Positions 7,273-59,260 of a stretch of 64,000 nt of DNA are shown here, in pieces. Position 1 is the first letter of the stretch. Each line of letters begins with the position of its first letter. The position numbers were made by a program, and so were the translations under genes. The notes below the pieces were generated by a model. That model did no database searches. It saw only the letters and a list, made by a program, of their open reading frames with translations, and was not told the origin of the DNA. The DNA lies in the NCBI GenBank assembly GCA_031269685.1, contig JAISYU010000030.1, positions 729 through 64,728 of the forward strand. Reading direction: 5' to 3'. Source of the stretch: Dysgonamonadaceae bacterium. Its GTDB lineage: Bacteria > Bacteroidota > Bacteroidia > Bacteroidales > Azobacteroidaceae.

Positions 7273-8758
7273 TTATTTTCTTGATTGTTCCAATCCATAT
7301 CCTTTACGTCTATCCTCAATCTTCAAGAGGTATGCGACGAAAATCGCTAATATCCCGAAAAGAGCGAAGATAAGCATTGGTAATGTGTAGTCGTACGTTG
7401 CGGCGCCTTTATCGTCCGCTCCGGTTACGCACCACCTGTTTAACACCCAACCGATAAGGTAAGGCACTCCCGCAAGCCCTATGTTTTGTACCCAAAAGAT
7501 GAGTGCGTATGCTGTGCCGAGCTGTTTTTCGGGGATTATCTTCGGTACGGAGGGCCACATAGCCGATGGGACAAGCGAAAACGCTATTCCTAACAGTATG
7601 ACAACGATTATCGCAAACCATACATAATTCAAGAAAGGCGCGGCAAACAGCAAATGTACAACGACAAGCAGTAATGACCCGATAAGCATTAATGTCGCCC
7701 CGTGCCCCCTCTTATCATATATCCAACCGAAAAATGGAGTCATCAGCATGTTACCGAATGGCAGCAGGCTGGGTACTATTCCCGCGAATTCCTTTTCCAC
7801 TCCGTATTTGTTGACCATTAAAGATGCTGCAAACTTCAAGAACGGAAACACTGCCGAGTAAAAAAGAACACACAGTATCGCTATCAGCCAAAAGCCTTTG
7901 TTTGCAAATACTACGCCTACATCGCGCATCTTAAATTCATCTTCTTTGGTTTTTACCGAAACCGTTGCGTCTTCGCGGTCAAGTTTTCTGTCCATCACAC
8001 AGTAAACAAGGAATACCAGCAGACCGATTGTCAACATGGCAAGCGAAAAGAGAAAAGGCGATGACATTGAGAAATTACGGGCAATGATCGGACTGAATGC
8101 CATTGCAAAGGCTGTTCCGAGTCTTGCTATTGCTACCTGGATACCCATTGCAAGGGCTAGTTCACCGGTCTTTCCAAACCATTTAACAATGATCTTGGAA
8201 ACAGTGATTCCCGTTATTTCCGAACCCATGGCAAAGACCGCAAAACCACAGCAGGCAACCAGAATCTGTGTGCGTATCCCGAAAATACTCCCTGCGTCGG
8301 GCGATATATACTCAATCGCATAGTACTTTATCGCACATCCTATTACCATCAGCGCTGCCGACATCGTACCGGTAAACCGGACCCCCATCTTATCAAGTAT
8401 GATACCTCCGAAAAACAACATTAGCAGTATCACGTTCAGCCAGCCGTAAGCGCTGTTGAAGAGACCGAATTCATCGCTCGACCACGAGAGTCGTTGCGTG
8501 TCTGCATACTTTGTCGTTGTATGCCTGCATACATTGTCGTTGCGTGCCTGCATACATTGTCGTTGTATGCCCGCATACATTGTCGTTGCATGCCTGCATA
8601 CATTGCAAAGGTTTCTCCCCGAGCATGTCCATCAAAGGCGACATTGCGTCGTTGAGGAAGTATCCCCACATCATGGTGAAGGATACTATTAATAACGCTA
8701 TCCAGCGCATCTTCCCGTTATTTCTTACATTTCCCTTTACAATACCTTGTATTTTCAT
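7273..8758 (-). pseudogene. MFS transporter interrupted and frameshifted by a 115-bp tandem array (456 aa if the array is removed)
   Basis: The N-terminus (MKIQG...RWIALLIVSFTMMWGYFLNDAMSPLMDMLGEKPL, from 8758) and the body (LSWSSDEFGLFNSAYG...GGIILDKMGVRF, to 7273) are in different frames. Deleting 8491-8605 joins them in frame (1486-115=1371 nt). Confidence 0.85.
8491..8605. repeat. 5 x 23-bp tandem array, consensus TCGTTGTATGCCTGCATACATTG
   Basis: TCGTTG recurs at 8491, 8514, 8537, 8560 and 8583; the consensus unit contains the dyad TGTATGC-N2-GCATACA. Confidence 0.97.
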
Positions 8759-8875
8759 ATCTATTGTGTTTATTTTCAGTCTGTTTAGTCATTGATTATT
8801 GCCTTGCCGTACGGTTATATATCTTGCCTTCTGTAGCCATAAAGTAATCGTGAAAAGGCGTTTATTTTCGGGTGT

Positions 8876-8906
8876 CAAAGGTATGATATTTTTTCGTAAA
8901 AACAAA
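8876..8906 (-). promoter_or_regulatory. Bacteroidetes primary-sigma promoter for the MFS/DUF1097/DUF3316/S41 run
   Basis: Minus strand TTTG(8906-8903)-N19-TACCTTTG(8883-8876). Confidence 0.7.
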
Positions 8907-8907
8907 A

Positions 8908-9951
8908 TCAGGATTGACTGTTTACATTCCTGTGTACATGCTTTTGAAAATGGTTCACTTTGATGAGGTATTCCGCTATCTGTACCGCATTCAATGCCGC
9001 CCCCTTCTTTATCTGGTCGCCTACGCACCAGAATGACAGTCCATTGGGGTGGGAAATATCTTTTCTTATCCTGCCGACATAAACAGGATCGGATGAGGCA
9101 ACGAAAAGCGGCATCGGATAGCGTTTTTCCAAAGGACTGTCCTCGACAATCACACCTTCCGCAGCGGAAAGGGCTGCTGTTGCCTCTTCTACCGAAATCG
9201 GGCGCTCGGTCTCAACCCAAACAGCTTCCGAATGTGCCCGAAGTGCAGGTACACGCACACATGTAGCGCTGACATCTACCGTCGAGTGCATAATCTTCCG
9301 CGTCTCGTTGTGCATCTTCATCTCCTCTTTCGTGTAACCGTTATCCAAGAAGACGTCAATATGGGGTATAACATTAAAAGCCAACTGATGAGCGAAACTT
9401 TTCACTGTCGGCTCTTTGCCTGCTACAATCTGTTCGTGTTGGCGGATAAGCTCCGACATTGCCGCTGCCCCTGCTCCCGAAGCCGACTGGTACGTCGCTA
9501 CGTGTATCCGGCGAATATGTGAAATATCGTCCAAAGGCTTCAATACCACAACCATCTGAATGGTTGAACAGTTGGGGTTGGCGATTATTCCCTTCGGATG
9601 AACCAATGCATCTTCGGGATTGACTTCGGGAACGACTAGTGGAACGTCATCATCCATACGGAACGCACTCGAATTGTCAATCATCACCGCGCCATGTTTT
9701 GTGATGGTTCCGGCATATTCCTTCGACGTGCCTGCCCCAGCCGATGTGAAGGCAATGTCTATACCCATGAAATCATCGTTATGTTGCAGTTCACCGACTG
9801 TATATGATTTGCCGCGGAACTTGTATTCGCTTCCCGCGCTACGCGACGAACCGAACAGTTTCAATTTGTCAATCGGGAAATTTCTCTCTTCTAAAACTCT
9901 TAAAAACTCCTGCCCTACGGCGCCACTGACGCCAACAATTGCTATATTCAT
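8908..9951 (-). CDS. asd: Aspartate-semialdehyde dehydrogenase
   Basis: [36 protein letters not shown] and [13 protein letters not shown] motifs. Confidence 0.97.
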
Positions 9952-10057
9952 TAAAATAATTTGTGTATTTGGAAAATATTACCGTAACTTTGCAAATCAG
10001 ATTACTATTTTGCGACTGCAAAAGTAATCATTAATTAAATACAATTATAGAAAAACA

Positions 10058-11575
10058 ATGAAGAACGTTATTTTAAGTATTTTTTTCCTGCTTCCTGCCA
10101 CCTTGTTCTCGCAGTTTCGTGATGATTTTGGTGACGGTATTTTTCAGGGCAGTCCCGTGCAGACCCGTGACGTAGAATGGACAGGAGATACAGGTCTGTT
10201 TACAGTCAATGACTTAATGCAGCTACAATTGAACGCTACCGAAGCCGGCACGGCTCAATTGCGGACGTCATCAACCCTTTCAGCCAATGCTTGCTGGGAA
10301 TGGTGGATTGGATTAGACTTTAACCCAACCGTAAACAATTATGTCCGCATTTACCTTGTCAGTGACACGGAAGATTTTACTTCTCCCGAACTGAATGGAT
10401 TGTTTGTCCGTATCGGATATACCGATAAAAACATCTGCCTTATTCAGCAATCGGCGGGAAAAAACAATAAAACCCTGATCAAGGGGAGTGAAAAGCGGCT
10501 TAACGCAGAATTCAGTTCTATCTATCTGAAAGCAACTATTGACAGACAGGGTGTATTCAGCCTCTATTCCAGAATGTCGAACGAAAGCGACTATATTAAG
10601 GAAGGCGCTTGTACGATAAAGGAGATATTTACGGGTCAATACTTTGGTCTGTCCTGTATTTTTACTGAAACCCGCAGTAAAAAGTTCTTCTTTGATGAGT
10701 TTGTTGTGCGCGAACTGCGTGACGATGAGCAGGAGGATGCTGAAGATCCCATTTTGGAGGGTGACGTATTAGTAAATGAAATAATGTTCAATCCTCCTAC
10801 AGATGGCAGTGAGTGGATAGAGATTTGTAATTATTCTGAAAAGGCGATTGATCTCAGGTTTTTGAGTATTGCGACAAGGAAACCCTCTGACGGTTCACTC
10901 AACAAGGCATACCCACTTGCTACGAGCTCTGTTTTGCTGAACCCTGACGAATACCTTGTTATCACAAAAGACCGCGAGGGCATCTGTAAGCATTTCAACT
11001 GCCGCGAAGACGCTTTATACGCGGAACTTGCCATATTTCCAGCCTTAGCAAACGGATTCGGTACGATTGTTATATTGAACAACCTGAACGGTGAGATACT
11101 GGACGAGGTATCATACAATAACGACTGGCATTCTGCCGGTATCAACGATACGAAAGGCATTTCCCTTGAGCGCACTAATTCTGACTATCCGTCTAACGAC
11201 CCTTCAAACTGGCATTCTGCTTCTGACGACAGCGGATTTGCTACTCCGGGCTACGAAAACTCCATTCGCAAGAGCAACAATGCAATAGAAGAGTTTACGA
11301 TAGTATATCCACAATTTATAATAGGCAACTGTATCATCCGTTATAGGTTGGACAAGCCCGGATTACGCTGCAACGCCAAGCTATTTGACACTTCCGGCAG
11401 GCTTGTTTCTATCATCTCGGACAACAGTATCTTAGGCGCGGAGGGTGTTTTAACATGTAAGACCAACGGGAAGACGGGCATTTTAATCCTTCACTTGGAA
11501 ATTTATGACATTGACGGTAATGTCCGTTACTTTAAGAGACCCGTTGTGGTAAATATGAAGTCCCAGATTCCCTGA
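10058..11575 (+). CDS. Secreted lamin-tail-domain protein
   Basis: Signal peptide; VNEIMFNPP...SEWIEICN and GISLER...WHSAS...ATPGYENS LTD motifs; 3' end overlaps convergent miaA by 49 bp. Confidence 0.75.
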   Translation: MKNVILSIFFLLPATLFSQFRDDFGDGIFQGSPVQTRDVEWTGDTGLFTVNDLMQLQLNATEAGTAQLRTSSTLSANACWEWWIGLDFNPTVNNYVRIYLVSDTEDFTSPELNGLFVRIGYTDKNICLIQQSAGKNNKTLIKGSEKRLNAEFSSIYLKATIDRQGVFSLYSRMSNESDYIKEGACTIKEIFTGQYFGLSCIFTETRSKKFFFDEFVVRELRDDEQEDAEDPILEGDVLVNEIMFNPPTDGSEWIEICNYSEKAIDLRFLSIATRKPSDGSLNKAYPLATSSVLLNPDEYLVITKDREGICKHFNCREDALYAELAIFPALANGFGTIVILNNLNGEILDEVSYNNDWHSAGINDTKGISLERTNSDYPSNDPSNWHSASDDSGFATPGYENSIRKSNNAIEEFTIVYPQFIIGNCIIRYRLDKPGLRCNAKLFDTSGRLVSIISDNSILGAEGVLTCKTNGKTGILILHLEIYDIDGNVRYFKRPVVVNMKSQIP

Positions 11576-12435
11576 ACGTCATCTGGGTTAAACCATGTAA
11601 TATCCTTGTCTTTTTTTAGCCAAGACATTTGCTTTCTGGCATATATCCTCGTGTTCTTTTTAATTTTCTTCACGGCAAAACTCAGAGTACACTCTCCTGC
11701 GAGGTAACTGAACAGTTCTTTATATCCGACAGTGTTTAGTGCGTTAAAATTCCTGAAGGGATACATCTTTCGCGCTTCTTTCAGGAAGCCGGTATCCATC
11801 ATCTTGTCCACCCGCCTGTTAATTCTTTCGTACAATTCTTCTCTTTCGCGCGTCAGTCCGATTTTTATAATCTTGAACGGGCGGTATTTTATCACATTTT
11901 TCCTCATCAAAGAATAAGGCTGGTTAGCTGTCAGGCATACTTCGAGGGCATGAATCACGCGCTTATGATTTTTACCTTCTACATGCCGGAAAAAAATCGG
12001 ATCCACAACTTCCAGTTTATCGAGTATTGGATTTATGCCTTTTTCTTCGTAAAGTTTTTTCAGTGTCATGCGAATTTCGGGATCGATTGCTGGAATCTCG
12101 TCAATACCTTTGCATACTGCATCGAGGTACATCATTGATCCGCCGGTTATGATGACAACATGATGTTTACTGTACAGTTCCGTAAGCAGGTCCATCACCT
12201 CTTCTTCAAACATACTTGCGTTATAGTAGTCTTTCACAGAAAGATTTCCTATAAAATAATGTTTCACCCGCTTCATTTCCGACTTCTTTGGGGCGGCTGT
12301 ACCTATCGGTATCTCGCGATAGAATTGCCTGGAGTCGGCAGAGATTATCGGCACGCCAAGTTTTTTGGCAAAATCGACGCTCAGGGAGGTTTTTCCCACT
12401 CCCGTCGGACCTGTGAACACGAGCAATGTATTCAT
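11527..12435 (-). CDS. miaA: tRNA dimethylallyltransferase
   Basis: GPTGVGKT, ISADSRQFY, GGSMMY, LNTVGYKE and TRIYARKQ motifs. Confidence 0.95.
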   Translation of the reverse strand: MNTLLVFTGPTGVGKTSLSVDFAKKLGVPIISADSRQFYREIPIGTAAPKKSEMKRVKHYFIGNLSVKDYYNASMFEEEVMDLLTELYSKHHVVIITGGSMMYLDAVCKGIDEIPAIDPEIRMTLKKLYEEKGINPILDKLEVVDPIFFRHVEGKNHKRVIHALEVCLTANQPYSLMRKNVIKYRPFKIIKIGLTREREELYERINRRVDKMMDTGFLKEARKMYPFRNFNALNTVGYKELFSYLAGECTLSFAVKKIKKNTRIYARKQMSWLKKDKDITWFNPDDVQGIWDFIFTTTGLLK

Positions 12436-18462: not shown

Positions 18463-18996
18463 TTAACTAATATTTGCGTAAATTCCGCTACAAATTATAT
18501 CTTTGCCTCTGCAAGTTGCGTAAATTCCGCTACAAATTATATCTTTGCCTCTACAAGTTACGTAAATTCCGCTACAAATTATATCTTTGCCTCTACAATT
18601 TGCGTAAATTCCGCTACAAATTATATCTTTGCCTCTACAAGTTGCGTAGATACCTCTGCACTTTGCAGAGATGCCGCTGCACTTTGCAGAGATGCCGCTG
18701 CATTTTGCAGAGATGCCGCTGCGTTTTGCAGAGATGCCGCTGTACTTTGCAGAGATGCCGCTGTACTTTGCAGAGATGCCGCTGCATTTTGCAGAGATGC
18801 CGCTGCATTTTGCAGAGATGCCGCTGCATTTTGCAGAGATGCCGCTGCGTTTTGCAGTGGAATGGATACAACTTGTGTGGACTCCGCTGCATTTTGCAGT
18901 GATGCCGCTGCGTTTTACGGTGATGCATCTATAAAATGCTGTGATACAACTGAAATCTGTATCTGTATCCTTATAATATGTGGAGTTTACTCTCAT
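18463..18996 (-). CDS. Putative Gly/Cys heptad-repeat peptide (upstream ORF spanning the array), 177 aa
   Basis: ATG 8 nt after a consensus -7 element; (SGISAKC)n followed by (RGKDIICSGIYATC)n; stop 36 nt before the 18426 gene. Expression unproven. Confidence 0.45.
   Translation of the reverse strand: MRVNSTYYKDTDTDFSCITAFYRCITVKRSGITAKCSGVHTSCIHSTAKRSGISAKCSGISAKCSGISAKCSGISAKYSGISAKYSGISAKRSGISAKCSGISAKCSGISAKCRGIYATCRGKDIICSGIYANCRGKDIICSGIYVTCRGKDIICSGIYATCRGKDIICSGIYANIS
18467..18928. repeat. Compound array in one 21-bp phase: 4 x 42-bp units (18474-18641), then 9 near-identical (18656-18844) and 4 degenerate (18845-18928) 21-bp units
   Basis: 42-mer TTGCGTAAATTCCGCTACAAATTATATCTTTGCCTCT(G/A)CAAG; 21-mer CTGCA(C/T)TTTGCAGAGATGCCG with dyad CTGCA-N3-TGCAG; the first half of the 42-mer matches the 21-mer at about 14/21. 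Confidence 0.95.
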
Positions 18997-19195: not shown

Positions 19196-20722
19196 ATGAA
19201 TAAGCAAATAAAACGTAGCCTGATGTTAATTATTGCGATTACTATCGCTGTAACGTCTGTAGCGCAAATTGACAAAAAGCGTGAGTTCCGCGGCGCATGG
19301 ATTCATGTCATAAATCAAAGTCAATACGCGGGTATGAATGTGTCGCAGATGCGTAAATATTTTACAAAAATGCTCGATAACCTGAATGAAAACAACGTAA
19401 ATGCGGTTATCTTCCAGGTTCGCCCTGCTGCTGACGCTTTTTACCGTTCAAAACTCGAACCGTGGAGTCGATACCTTACCGGTGTACAGGGGAAGGCGCC
19501 TGATGAAGGGTTTGACCCACTGGATTTTATGGTTACCGAATGTCATAAACGGGGAATGGAAATTCATGCCTGGATGAACCCGTACCGCGTAACGGCTTCC
19601 AAAAATGATGTATTGTCTGACAAACATCTGTACCATAGTGACAAAGACCGATTCGTACATTACGACAACCGTATATTTTTTGACCCGGGATTACCACAGA
19701 ACAGGAAATTTATTTGCGCGGTAGTCAAAGATATTGTCACTCGATATGACATTGATGCAGTGCATTTTGACGACTATTTTTATCCATATCCCGTCGCCGG
19801 CGAACGATTCGACGATGATTTCAGTTTCGAGGTGTACGCAAGCCGTCAAGGTTTCACATCAAACAGGCGCGCAGACTGGCGACGAAATAATGTTAATTTG
19901 CTGATAGAACAGGTTCATAATACGATAGTTGCAACCAAACCCTGGGTACGGTTCGGGATAAGCCCGTTCGGGATTTACCGCAACAAACGCAGTACCGCTG
20001 ACGGTTCTGGAAGCGAAACCAACGGACTTCAAAATTATGACGACCTTTATGCCGATGTAATCCTGTGGGCGCAAAAGGGTTGGATAGATTATCTCGTGCC
20101 ACAAATATATTGGGAGATTGGCTACAAGCCCGCAGATTATGAAACGCTCGTTAAATGGTGGAGCAAACACGTGAAAAATGCGGAACTGTACATCGGTCAG
20201 GATATTGCACGCACCGTGAAAAAGCCCGACCCGCAAAATCCCGCTATAAACCAACTTCCACGTAAAATGGCGCTCGAAAGGAATTTACATGAAATCGGCG
20301 GGCACTGTTGGTGGCCCGGATATGAAATACTTAACAACATGGCGGGAGTTGCAGACAGCCTGAAAAATAATTGCCAACGATACCCCTCCCTAATCCCCCC
20401 ATATTCAAGGCTTCATGACCGGAAACCAAAAGAGGTTAAGGCGCTGCGGGCGGAATGGACTGCCGAAGGTTATTTGCTTTACTGGGAACAAAACGGGGAT
20501 ACAAACAACCCGGAAAGCGCTCAGTACTACGTAGTTTATCGCTTCGCCAAAAAACAAAAGCGTAACCTCAATAATCCTGCAAATATAGTGGCTAAAACCC
20601 GTGATACGTACTATAAATTGCCTTACGAGAACGGCGCGCAAAAGTATAAGTACGTCGTAACCGCTGTTGACCGCTTTCACAACGAGTCAAAACGCGGAAA
20701 ATCAAAGAATGTGAAATTGTAA
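19196..20722 (+). CDS. Glycoside hydrolase-like family 10 (DUF187/YddW-DigH-like) with C-terminal FN3-like domain
   Basis: Signal peptide; EFRGAWI, FQVRP, EIHAWMNPYR, DAVHFDDYFYPY, GISPFG and WIDYLVPQIYW motifs; YVVTAVDRFHNES tail. Confidence 0.88.
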   Translation: MNKQIKRSLMLIIAITIAVTSVAQIDKKREFRGAWIHVINQSQYAGMNVSQMRKYFTKMLDNLNENNVNAVIFQVRPAADAFYRSKLEPWSRYLTGVQGKAPDEGFDPLDFMVTECHKRGMEIHAWMNPYRVTASKNDVLSDKHLYHSDKDRFVHYDNRIFFDPGLPQNRKFICAVVKDIVTRYDIDAVHFDDYFYPYPVAGERFDDDFSFEVYASRQGFTSNRRADWRRNNVNLLIEQVHNTIVATKPWVRFGISPFGIYRNKRSTADGSGSETNGLQNYDDLYADVILWAQKGWIDYLVPQIYWEIGYKPADYETLVKWWSKHVKNAELYIGQDIARTVKKPDPQNPAINQLPRKMALERNLHEIGGHCWWPGYEILNNMAGVADSLKNNCQRYPSLIPPYSRLHDRKPKEVKALRAEWTAEGYLLYWEQNGDTNNPESAQYYVVYRFAKKQKRNLNNPANIVAKTRDTYYKLPYENGAQKYKYVVTAVDRFHNESKRGKSKNVKL

Positions 20723-20765
20723 ATACTGTTAGAACGCAGGCTTTTAAGATCTTCCAAAATAAAAG

Positions 20766-22163
20766 TTACTCGCTTTTGCGAGCCAGTTCGGAAACCTCCT
20801 GGATAGTTATCGGCAACCGGTCCTCATGCGTGTGACGACAGCCCTCATTGGTGATAACTATATTATCTTCAAGGCGTATCCCACCAAATTTCTTGTAACC
20901 CTCCAACTTTTTGAAGTTAATAAAATTACGGCATATTTTATTCTCGTACCACTTGTCAATAAGTTCGGGAATAAAATAAATACCCGGCTCAACGGTCAGG
21001 ACATGTCCGGGTTCAAGCCGCCTTCCAAATCGTAAACTCTTGTAACCAAACTGAGTATCGCGCGTCGTAGTTTCATCGTAGCCGACCAGCGTCTCATCAA
21101 GATTTTCCATATCGTGAACGTCCAAACCTAACGCGTGACCAAGCCCGTGAGGCATAAACAAAGCCGGCGCACCCTCGTGCAAAGCCTCCTCAGTATCGCC
21201 TTTTGTTATGCCAAGATCGCGTAAACCCTCGAAGATAATGCGGTAAGCGTTGCGATGTATGCTCTTATATGTGACATCAGGACGAGCCAGGCTAATAGAC
21301 TCGTTTATAGTCTTTAAGACAATGTTGTAAATCTCTTCCTGCTTGGTCGTGTACAGACCGCCAACAGGAGTAGTGCGCGTAAAATCAGACGCATAATGAC
21401 TTACAGTTTCTGCACCGGCGTCGCAAAGCATTAATTGCCCGAAACTAAGTTTTCCACCATGATCGTGATTGTGAAGGATCTGACCCTTAGTGGAAAGTAT
21501 AGTGGGAAAAGATGTTCTGCAATGCTGCGTAATTAAAATCGCTTCGATAGCCCCGACTATATTTATCTCCTTTTCGCCCGGCTTGCACATGTCCATTGCT
21601 ATAGAATGCATAAAATGACCCATACTGGCGGAAACCTTTATATGGTGCAACTCTGCCGGTGATTTTATCAGGCGCATGGAAATAATTGCCTCCGCTAACT
21701 CCTTTGAATTGCCGGCTATTATTTCATTATGCGTTTTTCCTGTAAGTTCGCTCAGAAGTATCACGCCGTAACTTCTGTAAGGCTTTAAAAAATGTATCTT
21801 CCTGTCCGATTTTACCGCCTTCTCAACGTACTTGTAAGTATTACGAATCGGCTCTACCCTGCTGATACCAACTTCCAGCGCGTAATGCTTTAATGAAGGC
21901 TTGACGCCCATCCATATAACATCCTCCAATGTAGCCTCTTCGCCGAACAAATATTCTTTATCATTGTCAATGTCAAGTAGATATATCAAACTCGGCTTAT
22001 CAATGCCAACATAATACAAAAAAGTACTGTCTTGCCTGAATGGATATTCATTTGCCTCGTAATTGATGGCAATATTATCATTTCCAACCAGGATAATCAA
22101 TCCTGATTTTACTTTCTTCTTCAACTCATTACGGCGCTTAACGTAAGTTTCTCTTTCAAACAT
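20766..22163 (-). CDS. pepP: Xaa-Pro aminopeptidase (M24B)
   Basis: YPFRQDSTFLYY, DAGAE, SDFTRT, HGLGHALGLDVHD, TVEPGIYF and GGIRLEDN motifs. Confidence 0.9.
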   Translation of the reverse strand: MFERETYVKRRNELKKKVKSGLIILVGNDNIAINYEANEYPFRQDSTFLYYVGIDKPSLIYLLDIDNDKEYLFGEEATLEDVIWMGVKPSLKHYALEVGISRVEPIRNTYKYVEKAVKSDRKIHFLKPYRSYGVILLSELTGKTHNEIIAGNSKELAEAIISMRLIKSPAELHHIKVSASMGHFMHSIAMDMCKPGEKEINIVGAIEAILITQHCRTSFPTILSTKGQILHNHDHGGKLSFGQLMLCDAGAETVSHYASDFTRTTPVGGLYTTKQEEIYNIVLKTINESISLARPDVTYKSIHRNAYRIIFEGLRDLGITKGDTEEALHEGAPALFMPHGLGHALGLDVHDMENLDETLVGYDETTTRDTQFGYKSLRFGRRLEPGHVLTVEPGIYFIPELIDKWYENKICRNFINFKKLEGYKKFGGIRLEDNIVITNEGCRHTHEDRLPITIQEVSELARKSE

Positions 22164-22187
22164 ATTATTGATTTTTTTAGTTTCCTG

Positions 22188-23498
22188 CTATTTCTCCCTC
22201 ATAAAGATATTAACCGGCGTCCCTGTGAGATTCCAATTCTTCCGTATCTGATTCTCCAAGAACCTCCTGTAAGGCTCTTTGACCCATTGCGGAAGGTTAC
22301 AGAAGAAGACAAAACTCGGCACCGCCGTTTTCGGTAATTGTGTGATGTATTTGATTTTAACCACCTTCCCCTTATACATCGGCGGCGGCGTGTTCTCTAT
22401 AATCGGCAACAAAACATCATTGAGTTTGTGCGTCGAAATCTTTGTCCTGCGATTATCGTAAACCTGTTTAGCCGTTTCCAATATCTTGAAAATACGCTGC
22501 TTAGTGAGCGCAGAGGTAAATATAACGGGAATGTCCGTAAACGGAGCCGTCCGCTCGTGAATGGCAGCCTCAAAAGTCTTTACCGCAGCAGGTGTCTTAT
22601 TCTCAACCAAATCCCATTTGTTAACCGCAATTACTACGCCTTTGTGATTCTTATTAATCAACGAAAAGATATTAATATCCTGTGCCTCAATACCGCGCGT
22701 GGCATCAAGCATAAGAACACACACATCCGCATTTTCAATTGAACGTATTGCACGAACTATCGAATAATACTCAAGATCTTCGTTCACTTTATTCTTCTTG
22801 CGTATGCCCGCTGTGTCAATAAGAGTGAACCTCATGCCAAACTTGTCGTAAGTAGTGTTAATCGAGTCGCGCGTTGTGCCGGCAATATCAGTCACTATAT
22901 TACGCTCTTCGCCGATAAAGGCATTGAGTAACGATGATTTACCGGCATTCGGACGTCCTACAATAGCAATGCGCGGAATATCCTCCTCAATCTCCGGTAG
23001 CGGATTATCTTTTATTCTCGATACGGCAATGTCAAGCATATCACCGGTGCCTGAACCGTTTATCGCGGAAATACAGACAGGTTCCCCAAGCCCAAGTCCG
23101 TAAAACTCGGCTGAGAGCGGGTGAAGATTAAACGTATCCGCCTTGTTTGAAACAACGATCACAGACTTTCCCGAACGACGAAGAGTTCCGGCAATCTGCA
23201 TATCAAGGTCTGTGACGCCGGTATTTATATCCACAACAAAAAGCAGCAAATCAGCCTCTTCACATGCAATCTTTACCTGCTTGTTAATCTCCTCTTCAAA
23301 GGTATCCCCCGAATTTAGAACCCAACCGCCTGTGTCTATGATAGAAAAATTATAACCGTTCCACTCAACCCTTCCGTATTGACGATCGCGCGTAGTACCA
23401 GCCTCTTCGTTTACAATCGCTCTACCGGTCTGTGTCAAGCGGTTAAAAAGGGTCGATTTCCCTACATTCGGACGTCCAACTATTGCAATAATACTCAT
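22188..23498 (-). CDS. der: Ribosome biogenesis GTPase Der
   Basis: Two tandem G domains ([12 protein letters not shown] and [12 protein letters not shown]) plus KH-like tail; own promoter TACTTTTG at 23525-23518. Confidence 0.98.
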
Positions 23499-30146: not shown

Positions 30147-30287
30147 ATGAAAACATTATTTTTTTACTTACTGGAAAACGGTCTGTTATTCCTGTTATTA
30201 ATCTTTTCTTTTATAAAAGAGCGACAGTCATACTTCAATTATGAAGATTATAAAATCAAAAAATCCGCCGGATTTTGGATGATATAA
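30147..30287 (+). CDS. Putative 46-aa small membrane peptide
   Basis: Manual translation MKTLFFYLLENGLLFLLLIFSFIKERQSYFNYEDYKIKKSAGFWMI; downstream of TACCTTTG (30095-30102) with A-rich leader; below the ORF-track cutoff. Confidence 0.35.
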   Translation: MKTLFFYLLENGLLFLLLIFSFIKERQSYFNYEDYKIKKSAGFWMI

Positions 30288-30291
30288 TTAT

Positions 30292-30550
30292 GAACCAAGT
30301 CCGAACCAACTCCGTTGCAAGTCCGTTGCAAGTCCGAACCAACTCCGTTGCAAGTCCGAACCAACTCCGTTGCAAGTCCGAACCAACTCCGTTGCAACTC
30401 CGAACCAACTCCGTTGCAACTCCGAACCAACTCCGTTGCAACTCCGAACCAAGTCCGTTACAACTCCGAACAAAATCCGTTGCAACTCCGAACCAACTCC
30501 GAACCAACTCCGTTGCAACTCCGAACAAAATCCGAACAAAATCCGAACAA
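30292..30550. repeat. 11-bp two-monomer array (A=GAACCAACTCC, B=GTTGCAACTCC), 23 full units plus a partial unit
   Basis: Order read directly: AABBABABABABABABABAABAA, then GAACAA running into the ATG at 30551. Confidence 0.95.
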
Positions 30551-32596: not shown

Positions 32597-32661
32597 TGGT
32601 GTTCACCGATTTTGTATTAATTTTGCGCACTGTTTATATTACTTACAAAAAAATATTATCT

Positions 32662-35077: not shown

Positions 35078-35097
35078 AAGAAACCATAATTCAATAG

Positions 35098-36387
35098 ATG
35101 ACTGCGGCTTATTATACTTTGGGATGCAAATTGAACTTTGCCGAAACCTCATCCATCGGTAAGCAGTTGGAAGCGCTCGGAATAGAGAAAGAAACCGGCG
35201 GAAATGCCGACATTTGTATCGTAAATACATGCTCTGTGACCGATATTGCCGACCGTAAATGCAGGCAGGCTATCAGGCGTATCAAATCCCTTAACCCGCG
35301 GGCAATGATTGTCGTGACAGGCTGTTACGCTCAACTCAATCCCGCAGCAGTGGGCGGCATTGACGGTGTAGATCTTGTCCTCGGTACCGGCGAAAAGGCT
35401 AAACTTGCGGAATATATCGCCGATTACATGAGGTCGGAAAAGAAAACGAATCTTAGTGGCGTCAAGGCTGGTGCGGCGGAAGACATTGTGGAATTTTCGC
35501 CATCCTGCTCGCGCGGAAACCGTACCAGATATTTCCTCAAAGTCCAGGATGGATGCGATTATTACTGCTCTTACTGCGCAATCCCCTTCGCACGCGGCAA
35601 AAGCCGTAACGGGTCGATAAAAGATATTGTCAAAATGGCGGAATCGGTCGCCATCGAAGGCGGAAAAGAAATCGTACTGACCGGTATTAACATCGGAGAC
35701 TTCGGAAAATCTACCAATGAAGACTTTTTTCAACTCATTCGTGCGCTCGATAAAGTCGATAAAGTCGAAAGATTTCGCATATCCTCAATAGAGCCTAACC
35801 TTCTGACAGGCGAAATCCTCGAATTTATCGCCTCGTCCGGCAAATTCGCGCCGCATTTCCACATTCCCCTACAATCAGGCTCCGATAATGTGCTAAAACT
35901 TATGGGAAGACGGTACAAAAAAGCATTATTTGCGGAAAAAGTCTCACATATCAGGAAATTAATCCCCAATGCGTTTATCGGGGTCGACGTAATAGCCGGC
36001 TCGCCTGGCGAAACCAACGAATTTTTTAAAGAAAGCCTGCTATTCCTTAAAGAATTGCCCGTCGCAAAACTCCATGTCTTCACTTACTCCGAACGAAAAG
36101 GAACAAAAGCGCTCGAAATCAACCACAGGGTTAGCCCGGAAGAGAAAAAAGATCGCAGCCGGCAACTTATTGACCTCTCATCAAATAAAACCCTCGATTT
36201 TTACCGCTCACAGGTCGGCAAACAGCAGCAGGTGATCTACGAACATTCCGTCAAGGGCGGCAAAATGCACGGATTTACCGGAAATTACCTCAAAATTGAG
36301 TCCAATCATGATGATTCTTTGGTAAATCAATTAGTTTCCGTAACTTTGAACGTTCTTAGCGAACAGGATCTTCAATTTATTGTATGA
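35098..36387 (+). CDS. mtaB: tRNA t6A37 methylthiotransferase
   Basis: TLGCKLNFAET, NTCSVT, VTGCYAQL and KVQDGCDYYCSYCAIP radical-SAM motif. Confidence 0.95.
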   Translation: MTAAYYTLGCKLNFAETSSIGKQLEALGIEKETGGNADICIVNTCSVTDIADRKCRQAIRRIKSLNPRAMIVVTGCYAQLNPAAVGGIDGVDLVLGTGEKAKLAEYIADYMRSEKKTNLSGVKAGAAEDIVEFSPSCSRGNRTRYFLKVQDGCDYYCSYCAIPFARGKSRNGSIKDIVKMAESVAIEGGKEIVLTGINIGDFGKSTNEDFFQLIRALDKVDKVERFRISSIEPNLLTGEILEFIASSGKFAPHFHIPLQSGSDNVLKLMGRRYKKALFAEKVSHIRKLIPNAFIGVDVIAGSPGETNEFFKESLLFLKELPVAKLHVFTYSERKGTKALEINHRVSPEEKKDRSRQLIDLSSNKTLDFYRSQVGKQQQVIYEHSVKGGKMHGFTGNYLKIESNHDDSLVNQLVSVTLNVLSEQDLQFIV

Positions 36388-37265
36388 TACATTTTGTAAG
36401 TTTACTGATATATCGGTCATTTTGCCTCCTTTCGGCTCTGCCTTTACACGTGTTGTACGTTATTTCCGATGTGGCTTATTTCTTTGTTTACCGGGTAATC
36501 CGTTACCGTCGCAAACTTGTCAGGGAAAATATCCAAACCTCATTCCCCGACAAAGAAGAAAAAGAAATTCTAACCATAGAAAAAGGATTTTACCACCACT
36601 TCTGCGATACTTTCTTTGAAACCGTCAAAATGCTTAACTTTTCCGAAGCAAGGATGAAACGACATTTCATTTTGAAAAACCATGAACTGGTAGAATACTT
36701 CCTATCCAACGAAAAGGACGTCATTCTTATGGCAGGACACTACGGAAACTGGGAATGGGGAGCCTCAGCCGGTCTATGGATAAAGCCGGAACAAAACAGA
36801 GTCTTCGGATATATTTACAGACCACTCAAAAATCGCGCCTTCGATGAACTGTTTATCCGAATCCGTGAAAAATTCCGCTCCAAAGGATTCCCAAAAAACA
36901 ATATCTTTCGCGAAATAATAAAACTTGACCGCGAAAAGAAAAAATTTATGATAAGTTTCCTCTCAGACCAGAAACCTTCGACAGGAATTGCTACCATGAA
37001 TGTGAATTTCCTTAACCGCGATACAGAAGTTATGACCGGAACCGCAAAAATCGCTCGACATACCGGCGCAGTAGTGTGCTATGTCGAAATAACTAAAATC
37101 AAACGTAGTTTTTATGAAGGAAAAGTTAAACTGATAACAGATAATCCTGCCGAATTGACGGAAGAAGAAATAACAGAACGATACATGAAACTGCTCGAAA
37201 AGAACATAATGAAGCATCCGTCATACTACCTCTGGTCACATGACCGCAAACAGATAAACATCTGA
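36384..37265 (+). CDS. Lipid A / lysophospholipid acyltransferase (LpxL-like)
   Basis: GHYGNWEW, LSDQKP and YYLWSHDR motifs. Confidence 0.88.
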   Translation: MIHFVSLLIYRSFCLLSALPLHVLYVISDVAYFFVYRVIRYRRKLVRENIQTSFPDKEEKEILTIEKGFYHHFCDTFFETVKMLNFSEARMKRHFILKNHELVEYFLSNEKDVILMAGHYGNWEWGASAGLWIKPEQNRVFGYIYRPLKNRAFDELFIRIREKFRSKGFPKNNIFREIIKLDREKKKFMISFLSDQKPSTGIATMNVNFLNRDTEVMTGTAKIARHTGAVVCYVEITKIKRSFYEGKVKLITDNPAELTEEEITERYMKLLEKNIMKHPSYYLWSHDRKQINI

Positions 37266-37269
37266 AGGA

Positions 37270-38307
37270 ATGATGAAGATTGCAATAATCATACTCAACT
37301 GGAACGGTCGCCGGTTGCTTGAACAATATCTCCCTTCTGTCATCAAAAACTCCCCTCACGAGAAAACAGAAATCATTGTCGCCGATAACGGTTCAACGGA
37401 TGACTCCATCCAATTCCTTAATCAATACCCTGACGTAAGAAAAATAATACTTGACAAAAACTACGGGTTTGCAGGCGGATATAATCGCGCAATAGCCGAA
37501 GTTAGCAACGAATACCTTGTCCTGCTCAACTCCGATGTCGAAGTAACCGAAGGATGGCTAACCGCAGCCGACTTCCTCGCCGCCAACCCCGAATACGCAG
37601 CCGTACAACCCAAAATACTTTCCAGCCGCAACAGGAACTTTTTTGAATATGCCGGCGCGGCAGGCGGATACATCGACCAATATGGATACCCATTCTGTCG
37701 GGGTCGCGTATTATCCGTCACGGAAAAAGACGAAGGACAATACAATGCCGCATCCGAAATCTTCTGGGCATCCGGAGCCTGCATGTTCATACGCCGAAAA
37801 GACTACATATCCGCCGGAGGGTTCGATGAATATTTCTTTGCACACCAGGAAGAGATCGATCTTTGCTGGCGTCTAAGGGCACGCGGGCATAAAATCCTCT
37901 GCCTGCCACAATCAGTAGTCTATCACGAGGGAGGAGCGACGCTTGCGATGGAAAATCCCAGGAAAACATACCTCAATTTCCGCAATAACTTACTGATGCT
38001 ATACAAAAATGCACCGGAAAAACACTGCCGGAAAATATTCCTTCTACGTATAGTTACCGATATAATCGCCGCGCTCACATTCCTTATAAAAGGGTATCCG
38101 AAGAACGCACTGTCGGTATTGTCTGCGTACTGCGAGTTTTACAGGAAGAAGAAAGATTTCAAAGCCGCGCGGCAAAAGAATCTCATGCTCTCGACCGATG
38201 ACGATTTCCCGACAGGTGTTGTGCTAAGGAAATGCCTGCCGGTGGAATTTTACCTTAAAGGCAGGAAATATTTCTCACAGATTAAACAATCCCCGCGAAT
38301 GTATTGA
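37270..38307 (+). CDS. Family 2 glycosyltransferase
   Basis: IIILNWNG, VADNGSTD, NYGFAGGYN, LLNSDVEV, WASGACM and EEIDLCWR motifs. Confidence 0.92.
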   Translation: MMKIAIIILNWNGRRLLEQYLPSVIKNSPHEKTEIIVADNGSTDDSIQFLNQYPDVRKIILDKNYGFAGGYNRAIAEVSNEYLVLLNSDVEVTEGWLTAADFLAANPEYAAVQPKILSSRNRNFFEYAGAAGGYIDQYGYPFCRGRVLSVTEKDEGQYNAASEIFWASGACMFIRRKDYISAGGFDEYFFAHQEEIDLCWRLRARGHKILCLPQSVVYHEGGATLAMENPRKTYLNFRNNLLMLYKNAPEKHCRKIFLLRIVTDIIAALTFLIKGYPKNALSVLSAYCEFYRKKKDFKAARQKNLMLSTDDDFPTGVVLRKCLPVEFYLKGRKYFSQIKQSPRMY

Positions 38308-47983: not shown

Positions 47984-48370
47984 ATGAATACAAAAGTAAT
48001 ATATAGCATAGGGAAGAGGACGCAGGATACGGAAAAATATCCGACAGAATATTACATTTCCACATACCTGAAAAGAAATATGGAAGGGACTCCTTGCGTG
48101 ACTAAAGGGACTCCTTGCGTGACTAAAGGGACTCCTTGCGTGACCGAAGGAACTCCTTGCGTGACTAAAGGAACTCCTTGCGTGACCGAAGGAACTCCTT
48201 GCGTGACGGAAGGAACTCCTTGCGTGACGGAAGGAACTCCTTGCGCGACGGAAGGAACTCCTTGCGTGACTAAAGGGACTCCTTGCGTGACCGAAGGAAC
48301 TCCTTGCGTGACTAAAGGGACTCCTTGCGCGACGGAAGGAACTCCTTTACACCGGAAAATCTGTTGGTAA
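47984..48370 (+). CDS. Putative Gly/Cys heptad-repeat peptide (upstream ORF), 128 aa
   Basis: ATG 8 nt after the -7 element; 12 x (E/K)GTPC(V/A)T; stops 92 nt before the 48463 gene. Expression unproven. Confidence 0.45.
   Translation: MNTKVIYSIGKRTQDTEKYPTEYYISTYLKRNMEGTPCVTKGTPCVTKGTPCVTEGTPCVTKGTPCVTEGTPCVTEGTPCVTEGTPCATEGTPCVTKGTPCVTEGTPCVTKGTPCATEGTPLHRKICW
48083..48347. repeat. 12.6 x 21-bp array, consensus (G/A)AAGG(A/G)ACTCCTTGCG(T/C)GAC(T/C/G)
   Basis: Read directly; the consensus unit contains the dyad AAGGA-N2-TCCTT. Confidence 0.97.
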
Positions 48371-48462
48371 TAAGTCTTTAATGTCCTTAAAGTCTTGAAA
48401 TTCCTTACGGGAGAGACAAGAAATAAACAAAACAATACATAACAAAATTAATTATTACAAAA

Positions 48463-54968: not shown

Positions 54969-54973
54969 GGAAA

Positions 54974-55761: not shown

Positions 55762-55781
55762 AGGGGGGCGTAAGCCCCCTT
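55762..55781 (+). terminator. Terminator hairpin after sdhB
   Basis: GGGGGC-GTAA-GCCCCC stem-loop followed by T-rich TTGTTAGTTT. Confidence 0.7.
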
Positions 55782-55840
55782 GTTAGTTTAATAACTTTGA
55801 GTCTGGTCTATACCCATAAAGTTTTGGGTTAGTGCATCAA

Positions 55841-55973
55841 CACTGTAAGCCGGCACACAACGACAATGTATGCTGGCTTACAACGACAATGTATGCTGGC
55901 ATGCAACGACAATGTATGCTGGCTTACAACGACAATGTATGCTGGCATGCAACGACACTGCAAGCCGGCACAC
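55841..55973. repeat. About 5.8 x 23-bp array, same family as 8491-8605 in the opposite orientation
   Basis: Units CAATGTATGCTGGC(TTA/ATG)CAACGA alternate; terminal units are CACTG(T/C)AAGCCGGCACAC. Confidence 0.95.
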
Positions 55974-55975
55974 TG

Positions 55976-56012
55976 TAAAAAAACAGAGGGGGACGCATCG
56001 CTGCATCCCCCT
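55976..56012 (-). terminator. Intrinsic terminator of the cyd operon
   Basis: Minus strand GGGGGATGCA-GCGA-TGCGTCCCCC (GNRA loop) followed by CTGTTTTTTT. Confidence 0.8.
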
Positions 56013-56049
56013 GACACCATTAATCTTTAACCTCTAATAATTACCCGTT

Positions 56050-57150: not shown

Positions 57151-57174
57151 ATTATTTGCGATTAATGATTAACG

Positions 57175-58719: not shown

Positions 58720-58960
58720 ACTTTTTTATTTTTACGTTAATATTATGACCTTTTGTTAACTCATTATATATATACTCGCTTTTTTCTTTTTCGGAATCAA
58801 ACTCATTTAGCGGATTACGGAAAAAGAATACTTTAAGCACAGCGAACATTATGAACAGTTTAACGAGAATTATCACCCACAGGGGCTTACCCCACGACAG
58901 GTTTTTGAAACCGTCCACATACATCCTGAAAAAATCTCCTATATTACGTATCCTTTCCAT
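58700..58960 (-). CDS. DUF4492 family protein (cydAB-associated)
   Basis: FFRMYVDGFKNLSWGKPLWVIILVKLFIMFAVLKVFFF; directly upstream of cydA. Confidence 0.85.
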   Translation of the reverse strand: MERIRNIGDFFRMYVDGFKNLSWGKPLWVIILVKLFIMFAVLKVFFFRNPLNEFDSEKEKSEYIYNELTKGHNINVKIKKYGTKCN

Positions 58961-58980
58961 CGGTATTCTTTTTCACAGTG

Positions 58981-59004
58981 CAAAGATAAGCAATTGTGCA
59001 CAAT
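58981..59004 (-). promoter_or_regulatory. cyd operon -7 element with adjacent 12-bp palindrome
   Basis: TATCTTTG (58988-58981); ATTGTGCACAAT at 58993-59004. Confidence 0.6.
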
Positions 59005-59092
59005 AACTATTATATAACTTTACTTATCTTTTGTATATTCATTAAATGATGCAAGAAATTTTCTTATACGTATAGGGGAATTTCCCACACGC

Positions 59093-59260
59093 GGGAACAA
59101 ACTGTACACGCGCAGGAACAAATCGTACACGCGCAGGAACAAACTGTACACGCGCGGGAACAAACTGTACACACGCGGGAGCAAACTGTACACGCGCAGG
59201 AACAAACCATACACGCGCGGGAATAAACTGTACACGCACGGGAACAAACTGTACACGCGC
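59093..59260. repeat. 8 x 21-bp array, consensus (G/A)GGAACAAACTGTACACGCGC, with degenerate flanks
   Basis: Units start at 59093, 59114, 59135, 59156, 59177, 59198, 59219 and 59240. Confidence 0.95.

Follow-up and report, generated by a model that had tools for sequence, protein, structure and literature searches.

A 21-bp rhythm at silent codon positions, in register with intergenic tandem arrays, suggests an undescribed process that makes bacterial DNA self-similar at a fixed offset

Introduction

Bacterial genomes carry an AT-dinucleotide 'structural code' with a helical period of ~10-11.8 bp (Herzel, Trifonov, Mrazek; Lehmann et al. 2014, PMC4132750). The rhythm described here resembles it as a DNA-level periodic signal that extends over genes, resides mainly at third codon positions and varies in strength between lineages (PMC4132750). 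The two differ in period, since the rhythm here has one of exactly 21 bp and lacks a 10.5-bp component, in the nature of the signal, which is base identity here and A/T tracts there, and in coherence, which exceeds 800 bp here compared with ~100 bp there. In addition, the patterns reported here are domain-specific and in register with tandem arrays that spell the same pattern. Because peaks occurred only at multiples of 21, and not as A/T dinucleotides at 10-11.8 bp, we rejected the helical-period AT code as the identity of the signal.

BrickBuilt is a minisatellite-bearing MITE of Porphyromonas gingivalis (Klein et al. 2015, PMC4596501). Its 23-nt units form intergenic arrays at ~20 loci, with conserved leader and tail flanks and IS5-like terminal inverted repeats, and it breaks assemblies; the same study also mentions tandem repeats of 41, 23 and 22 nt in strain W83 (PMC4596501). 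A 23-bp family in the genome studied here (~32 arrays) looks like the same kind of element. Membership by unit homology was rejected, since the BrickBuilt consensus AGAYCATARTATCCTCTCRTRTG is unrelated both to our 23-mer GTCGTTGCATGCCTGCATACATT and to our 21-mers; as for the leader and tail, conserved modules flank some of our arrays, and no parent IS was found. The 21-bp arrays differ further in having at least 50 different units, in that neither terminal inverted repeats nor a parent IS were identified for them, and in imprinting their pattern on neighbouring genes, nothing alike having been described for BrickBuilt.

REP, BIME and REPIN sequences are short, often palindromic intergenic repeats that occur in hundreds of copies and are mobilised by RAYT (Y1) transposases. 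Our arrays are likewise short, often palindromic intergenic repeats in hundreds of copies; unlike REPs, their units are direct and head-to-tail instead of inverted pairs, and share no sequence. The concerted evolution of satellites and the 'cryptic simplicity' arising from slippage-like turnover reportedly go back to Dover and to Tautz, Trick and Dover in 1986. With these our case would share a sequence-independent homogenisation of units and a spilling of repetitive motifs into coding DNA; it differs in that the register reaches kilobases into non-repetitive conserved genes, and in that a single fixed period is found in few lineages only. Our literature search returned no published description of a 21-base rhythm.

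Results

We analysed with Tandem Repeats Finder (TRF) a stretch of 64,000 nt, hereafter the window, in whose coordinates all features are given, without strand. All seven tandem arrays of the original prediction were recovered at their places, and the ~2 kb or 3% of sequence ascribed to them came to 1,966 bp, or 3.1% of the window. The ORF map agreed with the contexts that had been listed (intragenic, leader, intra-operon, between terminators and between divergent promoters). As had also been predicted, the 23-mers were the exception among otherwise largely unrelated sequences: the array at 8490-8605 (5.0 copies of GTCGTTGCATGCCTGCATACATT) and that at 55840-55957 (5.1 copies) belong to one family and are reverse complements of each other. 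The former runs into an MFS-transporter ORF, at or within its 5' end, with ORFs 7273-8580 and 8471-8758 in different frames on either side; the MFS_1 match of the transporter begins at profile position 25. The latter lies between convergent genes and has G+C hairpins on both sides.

The remaining arrays were built of 21-, 22- or 42-bp units. Between divergent genes, a 42-bp array (18474-18648, 4.2 copies), whose unit consists of two diverged 21-mers, abuts a 21-bp array at 18648-18926 (13.2 copies of AGATGCCGCTGCATTTTGCAG, a unit with the dyad CTGCA-N3-TGCAG). A 22-bp array with an 11-bp sub-period (30292-30551, 11.8 copies) has a small ORF on one side and on the other a signal-peptide gene starting at 30553, which leaves 2 nt from array end to ATG. 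Two 21-bp arrays lie between co-directional genes, one at 34497-35064 (27 copies of CAAATTCTCCGAAACTGGCGA), between a GH116-like gene and mtaB, and one at 48083-48347 (12.6 copies of GAAGGAACTCCTTGCGTGACT), just after which a 9/18-bp array follows at 48372-48407. Contig C66 carries an array 90% identical to that at 48083, and the orthologous site in 18 relatives held heptamer arrays only and no 21-bp array. The last array (59086-59271, 8.9 copies of CACGCGCGGGAACAAACTGTA) separates the divergent cydA and a gene for a sugar-phosphate-isomerase-like protein. An Rfam search of the window and of five composite repeat regions yielded nothing beyond chance miRNA-like matches.

The genome to which the window belongs (G000, 2.23 Mb) is a MAG of 125 contigs, and its arrays are known from the assembly. 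TRF detected 427 of them, covering 3.3% of the genome, a density equalled only by its closest relative, G012. The histogram of periods was neither flat nor merely biased towards multiples of three: 145 arrays had a period of exactly 21 bp, compared with 4 at 20, 7 at 22, 14 at 18, 3 at 24 and 4 at 15 bp. This strongly upheld the proposal of a process that acts across the genome to generate or select arrays of such a size, and an ordinary slippage VNTR, with its broad or 3n-biased spectrum, was rejected on the same numbers. The proposed link to the helical pitch proved too loose; periods of 10-11 bp and 31-32 bp were not over-represented. Exact tandem duplications with periods of 13-60 bp fell at 21 (178), 22 (7), 23 (28), 41 (7), 42 (35) and 46 bp (4), the only others being four single cases at 14, 15, 18 and 33 bp.

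The 21-bp arrays comprise at least 50 unit families when families are cut at no more than 5 mismatches, and pairs of units at 6-8 mismatches were in excess, so that the families form a network. The dyads quoted in the original prediction were present in the units, but its statement that most units carry one was only half borne out, since perfect arms of at least 5 bp were found in 22 of 50 unit families (44%) against ~5 expected. Dyad strength bore no significant relation to copy number. Classification as REP/BIME/REPIN by a single palindromic unit was rejected on this share of families and on the at least 50 unrelated units. The same unit recurs at 2-4 loci, and many arrays end contigs. Conserved modules adjoin arrays of differing units; they are of (TG)n type (26 copies), of hairpin type, or 9-mer arrays. 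Flanks that are 90-95% conserved adjoin arrays at a random-level distance from each other. Within arrays the ratio of substitutions to indels was ~23:1. The 23-bp arrays are one dispersed family with a single sequence. An iteron or operator array was rejected as well, there being no shared consensus among the 21-bp arrays; the genes beside them are unrelated and of housekeeping type.

The third codon positions of 787 long ORFs, all arrays excluded, showed a rhythm of 7 codons (21 bp). With arrays masked, base identity at lags of 21, 42, 63 and 84 was raised by ~+0.009, and the median window was shifted too. In the ORFs, identity at codon position 3 was 0.2845 instead of 0.265 (+0.019), the shift at positions 1 and 2 being +0.003, and shuffling of synonymous codons erased the signal, lowering the period-7 chi2/df from 2.47 to 1.00; the placement mainly at synonymous third positions is one that the structural code shares. 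Among codon periods from 2 to 21, only 7, 14 and 21 stood out. Same-base pairs (A-A, C-C, G-G, T-T) were in excess by +29 to +59 x 1e-4, with A-T and C-G cross terms of about 0. The 10.5-bp harmonic was absent, lags 9/12 and 30/33 reaching at most ~10% of the lag-21 amplitude. Protein heptads were rejected as the source of the rhythm, given its location at position 3, its loss on synonymous shuffling and its absence from orthologs in other species. The rhythm was flat out to 280 codons (840 bp), without decay. This near-flat autocorrelation, which does not fall from the nearest neighbour, fits a domain-wide attractor, and selection for a local pattern would give the same.

Silent-site patterns were largely gene-specific, and a 7-letter pattern common to all genes showed only a marginal excess over permuted controls. 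The rhythm follows DNA coordinates and not the strand of the gene: read on the + strand, the column preferences of neighbouring genes agreed for pairs on the same strand (r 0.59) and on opposite strands (r 0.55). A single chromosome-wide 21-bp lattice was rejected, since coherence was lost by 10 kb. The rhythm persisted in genes lying over 5 kb from the nearest array (chi2/df 2.32). In the window, two convergent genes at 10058-12435, with no 21-bp array within 6 kb, gave period-7 chi2/df values of 5.38 and 3.47 (0.5-1.4 for periods 6 and 8), and the strongest rhythm was found in three genes at 19196-23498 (6.95, 5.58 and 3.92).

Arrays and flanking DNA were in register. The flanks matched the array consensus at shift 0 only, with a summed score of 13.9 compared with -3.5 to +1.8 at other shifts, and the excess, 0.095 at 0-50 bp, faded across ~6 kb and was down to 0.005 at 6-8 kb. 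By site, it amounted to +5.2% at 4-fold sites, +4.3% at position 3, +1.5% at position 1 and +0.9% at position 2. At 100-1500 bp and in the true register, the flanks matched the consensus of the 18648 array at 0.309 and 0.282 against 0.25 (z 3.4 and 2.5), and that of the 34497 array at 0.315 and 0.351 against 0.245 (z 4.0 and 3.4). The flanks of the 59086 array were also in register (z 3.1 and 2.1; bins at 58-62 kb, z 2.3 and 3.3). Around the 34497 array, four genes form a periodic domain (32572-38307) whose silent-site preferences are in genomic register with its consensus. Their chi2/df at period 7 was 6.84, 5.99, 3.30 and 2.10, compared with ~1 at periods 6 and 8; mtaB agreed with the array at 5 of 5 called columns and the gene at 37270-38307 at 6 of 6, and z in 2-kb bins was 3.9, 4.1 and 2.9.

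The imprint was reproduced in G012, and arrays whose units recur elsewhere imprinted their flanks as strongly as singletons did. It was absent for 23-mers, 41-mers and the 22-mers of a third genome, G006. In the window, there was no in-register imprint beyond 300 bp from the 8490 array, none beside the 55840 array and no clear one beside the 30292 array. Flanks of the 48083 array had no imprint either (z about 0), and because of this the array is possibly a recent copy. Most of the genome consists of kilobase-scale domains, in each of which the 21 columns (coordinate mod 21) have their own favoured base. In genes this pattern is almost confined to silent codon positions; in intergenic DNA, where it keeps its register, identity rises to 85-100% and the pattern becomes visible as a 21-bp (or 42/63/84-bp) array.

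We compared 33 genomes, G000 and 32 other sampled ones. The rhythm was present in 2 of the 32, G012 and G006, which are also the only ones with 21/22-bp arrays, those of G006 being 22-mers. Silent-site patterns were no better conserved in G012 orthologs than in non-periodic species. No strains closer than 65% protein identity are on record.

The enzymes suggested in the original prediction did not account for the arrays. A search for Y1/REP-associated transposases (PF01797) gave no match in G000 or G012, which also rejects REP/BIME/REPIN by RAYT gene; several array-poor relatives had 3-13 matches. The single reverse transcriptase of G000 (C60:2629-3891) belongs to a canonical DGR with bAvd and a lectin-fold target, and none was found in G012. 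Templated repeat addition by a reverse transcriptase of DGR, retron or DRT type was rejected, since no such gene is associated with arrays in G000 and G012 has none. As for the suggested mismatch-repair defect, G000 has MutS and MutL; XseA is present in all three periodic genomes, and RecJ was found in G000 and G006 and not in G012, which is 74% complete. With MutS, MutL, RecJ and XseA present, a simple repair defect is not the cause. Genome searches for Argonaute/Piwi and for multi-copy transposase ORFs were negative.

Discussion

The rhythm suggests an undescribed process that makes DNA self-similar at a fixed 21-base offset. We give about even chances to a homogenising, that is copying, process which would act independently of sequence at 21-bp offsets, its copies being filtered by selection in genes and going to completion between them. 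Of the two mechanisms on offer in the original prediction, one based on replication, repair or templating fits better, the array pattern being imprinted in register on flanking silent sites for kilobases. The arrays would not be separate elements: DNA throughout the chromosome would tend towards identity with itself at 21 bp and multiples of it, and arrays would be the state in which this tendency, free of constraint, has reached saturation. The process would act in cis, in effect as concerted evolution beyond pre-existing repeats; its probable route is templated synthesis or repair that is out of register by +/-21n and converts short patches. Purifying selection would weed out most amino-acid changes, and synonymous sites would therefore drift to the local 21-bp consensus while intergenic DNA completes it. 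Homogenisation would explain how an exact period exists without a common sequence, and why arrays occupy all intergenic contexts.

The origin of the ruler is the weakest link of this reading. Since genes more than 5 kb from arrays are rhythmic, the process can do without arrays as seeds and calls for an intrinsic ruler of 21 bp. This ruler may measure ~21-22 bp, or two helical turns, of which only a multiple of three would be able to spread in coding DNA. It counts against copying that the candidates checked included no enzyme or intermediate for it, and that an out-of-register heteroduplex with many mismatches is normally aborted by mismatch repair. The dyads and the 41-bp arrays, a separate class, fall outside its account. 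The 23-bp family, which looks like a dispersed minisatellite similar to BrickBuilt, has no part in the 21-bp process. A more specific form, which from the sequences we regard as tentative and rather doubtful, is a dedicated, horizontally acquired activity in some Bacteroidales that, with a two-helical-turn ruler, would copy DNA in cis to 21 bp away, making minisatellites de novo out of arbitrary sequence and steadily overwriting synonymous sites in ordinary genes, which would amount to concerted evolution of non-repetitive DNA throughout the genome.

The main rival is a packaging or structural code, in which a nucleoid protein or filament would contact DNA every two helical turns and selection would keep a phased signal in codon choice and arrays. 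We consider it unlikely, even though 21 bp is 2 x 10.5 bp, the phase is coherent over kilobases and across genes of both strands, the signal sits at third positions like the published ~11-bp 'structural code' (PMC4132750), its distribution is limited to lineages, and a flat autocorrelation suits a fixed local target. Against these points, lags 9/12 and 30/33 carry hardly any 10.5-bp harmonic, the signal is one of base identity and not of A/T versus G/C class, and patterns are not conserved in orthologs of the other periodic species, G012. Moreover, every gene has its own 7-letter pattern, and therefore no single reader could recognise all of them. The lack of a 10.5-bp harmonic, the dependence of the imprint on base identity, the differences between genes and the at least 50 unrelated families spoke against the one-face protein-binding platform of the original prediction.

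Mobile composite elements, with minisatellites carried into intergenic DNA on MITE-like modules of BrickBuilt type, their period being inherited and their sequence diverging later, are a still less probable source. Units recurring at 2-4 loci, conserved modules beside arrays of different units and contig ends at many arrays would suit them, as would the 23-bp family, which behaves in this way and leaves its flanks without imprint, and the unimprinted 48083 array with its 90% identical copy elsewhere. They leave unexplained, however, the silent-site rhythm, its register with the arrays and the periodic genes distant from arrays. Nor was a Y1 transposase or a multi-copy transposase ORF found; recurring-unit arrays imprint their flanks as singletons do, and 90-95% conserved flanks beside arrays at random-level distance go beyond what divergence alone would give. 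Plain replication slippage (a process that can expand whatever tandem duplication is present) on duplications that arose by chance, or a metagenome-assembly artefact, conceivable for arrays seen in a 125-contig MAG, is very improbable, because duplications of 13-60 bp are confined, barring four single cases, to 21, 22, 23, 41, 42 and 46 bp, the rhythm leaves protein sequences intact, and it is present in three independently assembled genomes and absent from 30 others.

Whichever explanation applies, the rhythm offers a testable handle on the long-open question of helical-period signals at prokaryotic silent sites, with three positive genomes and thirty negative relatives open to comparison, and the finding also explains the poor assembly of such genomes. 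If selected, it would amount to a chromosome 'code' much stronger and more specific than the known ~11-bp signal. If made by copying, it would be a new mutational force that shapes codon usage and creates repeats from nothing, and under which synonymous sites in these bacteria would cease to behave as a neutral clock and in-frame 7-codon indels would arise. Between G000 and G012 orthologs we counted 5 gaps of 7 amino acids, compared with ~0.75 expected.

Tandem arrays in the window and genome-wide

Tandem Repeats Finder (TRF) recovered all the arrays named in the original prediction, which together account for 1,966 bp (3.1 % of the window). They are a 23-bp array of 5.0 copies (8490-8605), a 42-bp array of 4.2 copies (18474-18648) abutting a 21-bp array of ~13 copies (18648-18926), a 22-bp array of 11.8 copies with an 11-bp sub-period (30292-30551), 21-bp arrays of 27 copies (34497-35064), 12.6 copies (48083-48347) and 8.9 copies (59086-59271), and a second 23-bp array of 5.1 copies (55840-55957). 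The 23-mers at 8490 and 55840 belong to one family and are mutually reverse complement, the quoted dyads are seen in the units, and the arrays occupy the contexts that had been described: running into an MFS ORF, preceding an ATG, or lying between co-directional, convergent or divergent genes. The flanking genes are ordinary housekeeping genes (MFS transporter, asd, GHL10 hydrolase, prmC, GH116-like gene, mtaB, aminotransferase, Fe-S subunit, cydAB and TIM-barrel isomerase).

We then extended the census to the whole genome (G000), a draft MAG of 2.23 Mb in 125 contigs (43.9 % G+C, 93 % complete, gene calls being uncurated long ORFs) from a large uncultured Bacteroidales genus, whose nearest species shows 77 % DNA identity in one shared gene. 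TRF detected 427 array clusters, which make up 3.3 % of the genome, with periods of 21 bp (145 arrays), 23 bp (32), 42 bp (29), 9 bp (38), 2 bp as (TG)n (38), 18 bp (14), 22 bp (7), 20 bp (4) and 24 bp (3), and a 41-bp class of 17 loci (e.g. C36:5266-5863 and C17:3443-3964) with at least eight unrelated units; among nearby periods, 43 bp is represented by only two arrays and 40 bp by none. Tandem repeats of 41, 23 and 22 nt are likewise reported for P. gingivalis W83 (PMC4596501). Exact tandem duplications of 13-60 bp were found at 21 (178), 22 (7), 23 (28), 41 (7), 42 (35) and 46 bp (4), and otherwise as four single cases only, at 14, 15, 18 and 33 bp. Because they concentrate at these few lengths, with 21 bp dominating, the period histogram is clearly neither flat nor merely biased towards multiples of three, in agreement with the proposal that a genome-wide process generates or selects arrays of this size. 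At least 88 % of the 21-bp arrays lie outside long ORFs, and the others are mostly in short frames made by the arrays themselves.

Those 21-bp arrays that have three or more copies (n = 120) form about 50 families at five or fewer mismatches, a distance at which a shuffle control gave ~1 expected pair. Unit pairs at 6-8 mismatches were also in excess, and the families therefore constitute a loose network and not fully independent inventions. The claim that most units carry a dyad held only in part: the enrichment is real, as 22 of the 50 family representatives carry perfect arms of 5 bp or longer compared to ~5 expected, but dyads cover only half of what had been claimed.

A 21-bp rhythm at silent sites

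When all TRF arrays and 100 bp on either side were masked, base identity at lags of 21, 42, 63 and 84 bp remained ~0.009 above neighbouring multiples of 3. A few outliers do not explain the effect, as the median 210-bp window was itself shifted at 21n lags. The 787 ORFs that have 300 or more codons and contain no array (1.23 Mb) gave an identity of 0.2845 versus 0.265 at the third codon position, while positions 1 and 2 gained only ~0.003; 4-fold sites spaced 7 codons apart were identical at a rate of 0.291 versus 0.264. The third-position signal did not decay to 126 bp nor to 280 codons, and the DNA-level signal faded over 1-4 kb and was gone by 10 kb. Chi-square analysis of third-position composition against codon index modulo P (P = 2-21) gave chi2/df values of 2.47 for P = 7, 1.69 for P = 14 and 1.42 for P = 21, all other P from 2 to 20 giving 0.92-0.99. 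Shuffling synonymous codons within each gene reduced the value for P = 7 to 1.00. The rhythm exceeded 3 sigma in 39 % of long genes, and in the strongest a single base occupied 60-70 % of a given phase (e.g. C-A-C-G-A-T/A-N in a 2.1-kb gene). Its phase is independent of the start codon. Same-base terms reached +29 to +59 x 1e-4 and the A-T and C-G cross terms were ~0; the rhythm depends on base identity. Lag analysis of the 787 ORFs revealed no 10.5-bp harmonic.

The 7-letter patterns vary by gene (best-shift correlation 0.42 versus 0.38 in permuted controls), with a small tail common to several genes. In adjacent periodic genes, + strand column preferences agreed in true register both on the same strand (r 0.59, n = 47) and on opposite strands (r 0.55, n = 16), compared to r -0.1 at other registers, and the rhythm was lacking from the corresponding orthologs of non-periodic relatives (chi2 close to the degrees of freedom). 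Because of this agreement irrespective of strand, and of the lack of rhythm in orthologous proteins elsewhere, the rhythm is a property of the DNA and not of mRNA, translation or protein.

Arrays and flanking genes share one register

Silent-site preferences in 46 gene-array neighbours matched the array consensus at the true register (coordinate modulo 21) only, with a summed score of 13.9 versus -3.5 to +1.8 at the 20 other shifts. Considering all flanking bases around 77 arrays, the excess match fell smoothly with distance, from 0.095 at 0-50 bp to 0.051 at 100-200 bp, about 0.033 at 300-1000 bp, 0.023 at 1-2 kb, 0.011 at 3-4 kb and 0.005 at 6-8 kb; among site classes, 4-fold sites showed +5.2 %, position 3 +4.3 %, position 1 +1.5 % and position 2 +0.9 %. 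This imprint was replicated in the relative G012 (17 arrays). As internal controls, the 23-mers and 41-mers, together with the 22-mers found in another relative, G006, left no imprint beyond 300 bp. In the window, the pattern of the 34497 array continues through four genes (32.5 to 38.3 kb), matching 5/5 called columns in mtaB and 6/6 in the gene at 37270, and the 18648 and 59086 arrays imprint both divergent flanks. No imprint was seen on the flanks of the 48083 array, which recurs at 90 % identity on a different contig. Genes <2 kb from a 21n array had a chi2/df of 3.6 versus 2.3 for genes >5 kb away, where the rhythm persists, including in window genes at 10058-12435. Within domains on the kilobase scale, every column (coordinate modulo 21) favours a particular base locally, and the arrays are the stretches of these domains where the order is most regular. 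Searches of the literature gave no description of a 21-bp rhythm at silent sites, nor of arrays imprinting their flanks; closest are a roughly 11-bp AT 'structural code' (PMC4132750) and BrickBuilt, a minisatellite MITE with a unit unrelated to the 23-mer and 21-mers here (PMC4596501).

Distribution among relatives and possible origin

Among 32 other genomes (22 of the same genus, 10 from other families of the order; 7-200 kb sampled each), only G012 (chi2/df 2.11; 15 21-bp arrays over 183 kb) and G006 (chi2/df 1.40; five arrays of palindromic 22-bp units over 99 kb) displayed the rhythm. The G006 arrays (L109-L113) have unrelated palindromic units (GAGTTCTGAACTC, GTTTCACCTGATGAAAC, GAAACAAAGTGTTTC and others), and its coding rhythm is still 21 bp. 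The remaining genomes gave chi2/df of 0.83-1.12 and had heptamer, 15-mer or few arrays. The trait has a patchy distribution in the genus, as other relatives are closer to G000 than G006 is. None of the genomes in the collections is a close strain of G000. Patterns in G000/G012 orthologs agreed no better than those of G000 and non-periodic species. Their alignments contained five 7-residue gaps versus ~0.75 expected, and 0-1 gaps of 5, 6, 8 or 9 residues, an excess that fits insertion or deletion of 21 bp within genes.

The main rival explanation, a packaging code maintained by selection, agrees with the long coherence and flat autocorrelation of the rhythm but not with the missing common motif, the missing 10.5-bp component or the absence of conservation from species to species; we rate it as rather unlikely. 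We give about an even chance to a cis-acting process that would homogenise DNA at offsets of 21n bp, whatever the sequence. Selection would admit its action mainly at silent sites, and unconstrained intergenic DNA would proceed to an end-state of perfect arrays, the unit being whatever the local consensus happens to be. Homogenisation of this kind would account for the identical period of arrays that are unrelated in sequence, their occurrence in all kinds of context, the in-register gradient, the base-identity dependence, the small effect at positions 1 and 2, the gene- and species-specific patterns and the surplus of 7-residue indels in G000/G012 orthologs. The combination in G006 of 22-bp intergenic arrays with a 21-bp coding rhythm hints, speculatively, at a ruler some two helical turns long, of which coding DNA would admit only a multiple of three.

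The arrays sit within mosaics of dispersed modules. A module of ~100 bp (26 copies, e.g. C101:1100-1260, C50:760-920 and C105:190-420), with the layout ...GAACTTTCTTGCGTATGAAATATTTTTTTATTATCTCGCG...TAATATAATAAGGTATGAATAGG, then (TG)8-20, then TTAACAAAATATTTGACA, is the source of the majority of dinucleotide arrays (38 in all) and is frequently adjacent to 21/42-bp arrays of differing units. A two-hairpin module, AACCCGCAGGGTT GAATATAAATAA CCCCCAATGAAGCGCAGCGATTGGGGG (C111:1450-1750, C108:4640-4710, and contigs C14, C23, C29 and C91), is itself in tandem every 96-112 bp, varies by compensatory changes (AAT/ATT to AGT/ACT) and had no match in Rfam. The 9-bp arrays, (CTTTAAAGN)n, e.g. 48372-48407 in the window, usually lie directly beside 21-bp arrays and the hairpin module. 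Modules conserved at 90-95 % adjoin arrays whose units differ at random-level distance. Mobile composite elements probably account for these mosaics, the recurrence of certain units and the 23-bp family, but they leave the rhythm in genes unexplained, and as a general explanation we hold them to be improbable. Plain slippage or an assembly artefact is very unlikely.

Candidate enzymes and side observations

None of the enzymatic sources put forward for the arrays was borne out. A Y1/RAYT transposase was not found in G000 or G012, and several array-poor relatives have 3-13; the sole reverse transcriptase of G000 is part of a standard, complete DGR (C60:86-4228, L174; lectin-fold target, reverse transcriptase and bAvd) ~2 kb from dnaA; and MutS and MutL are present in all three periodic genomes, contrary to a mismatch-repair defect. 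XseA is found in all three, and RecJ in G000 and G006, not in the 74 %-complete G012. Searches for a Piwi domain and for multi-copy transposase ORFs found none, and among the enzymes searched no candidate machinery for the rhythm was identified. The array-poor relatives G013, G001 and G011 carry several Y1 transposase genes, missing from G000 and G012, and are rich in heptamer (7/14-bp) arrays, some of which form inverted pairs on either side of a gene end.

In the window, the 8490 array (116 bp) extends into the MFS-transporter ORF. ORFs 7273-8580 and 8471-8758 differ in frame, and a hydrophobic 51-codon N-terminal piece upstream of the array is in a different frame from the remainder of the MFS ORF. 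Because each 23-bp unit shifts the frame by 2, array copy number could switch the MFS gene on or off; alternatively, the gene may be broken. The 30292 array ends 2 nt upstream of the ATG of a signal-peptide gene (start 30553), and directly before the array is a small ORF (30148-30291) of ~47 codons, encoding a hydrophobic peptide and preceded by a Bacteroidetes-type -7 box.
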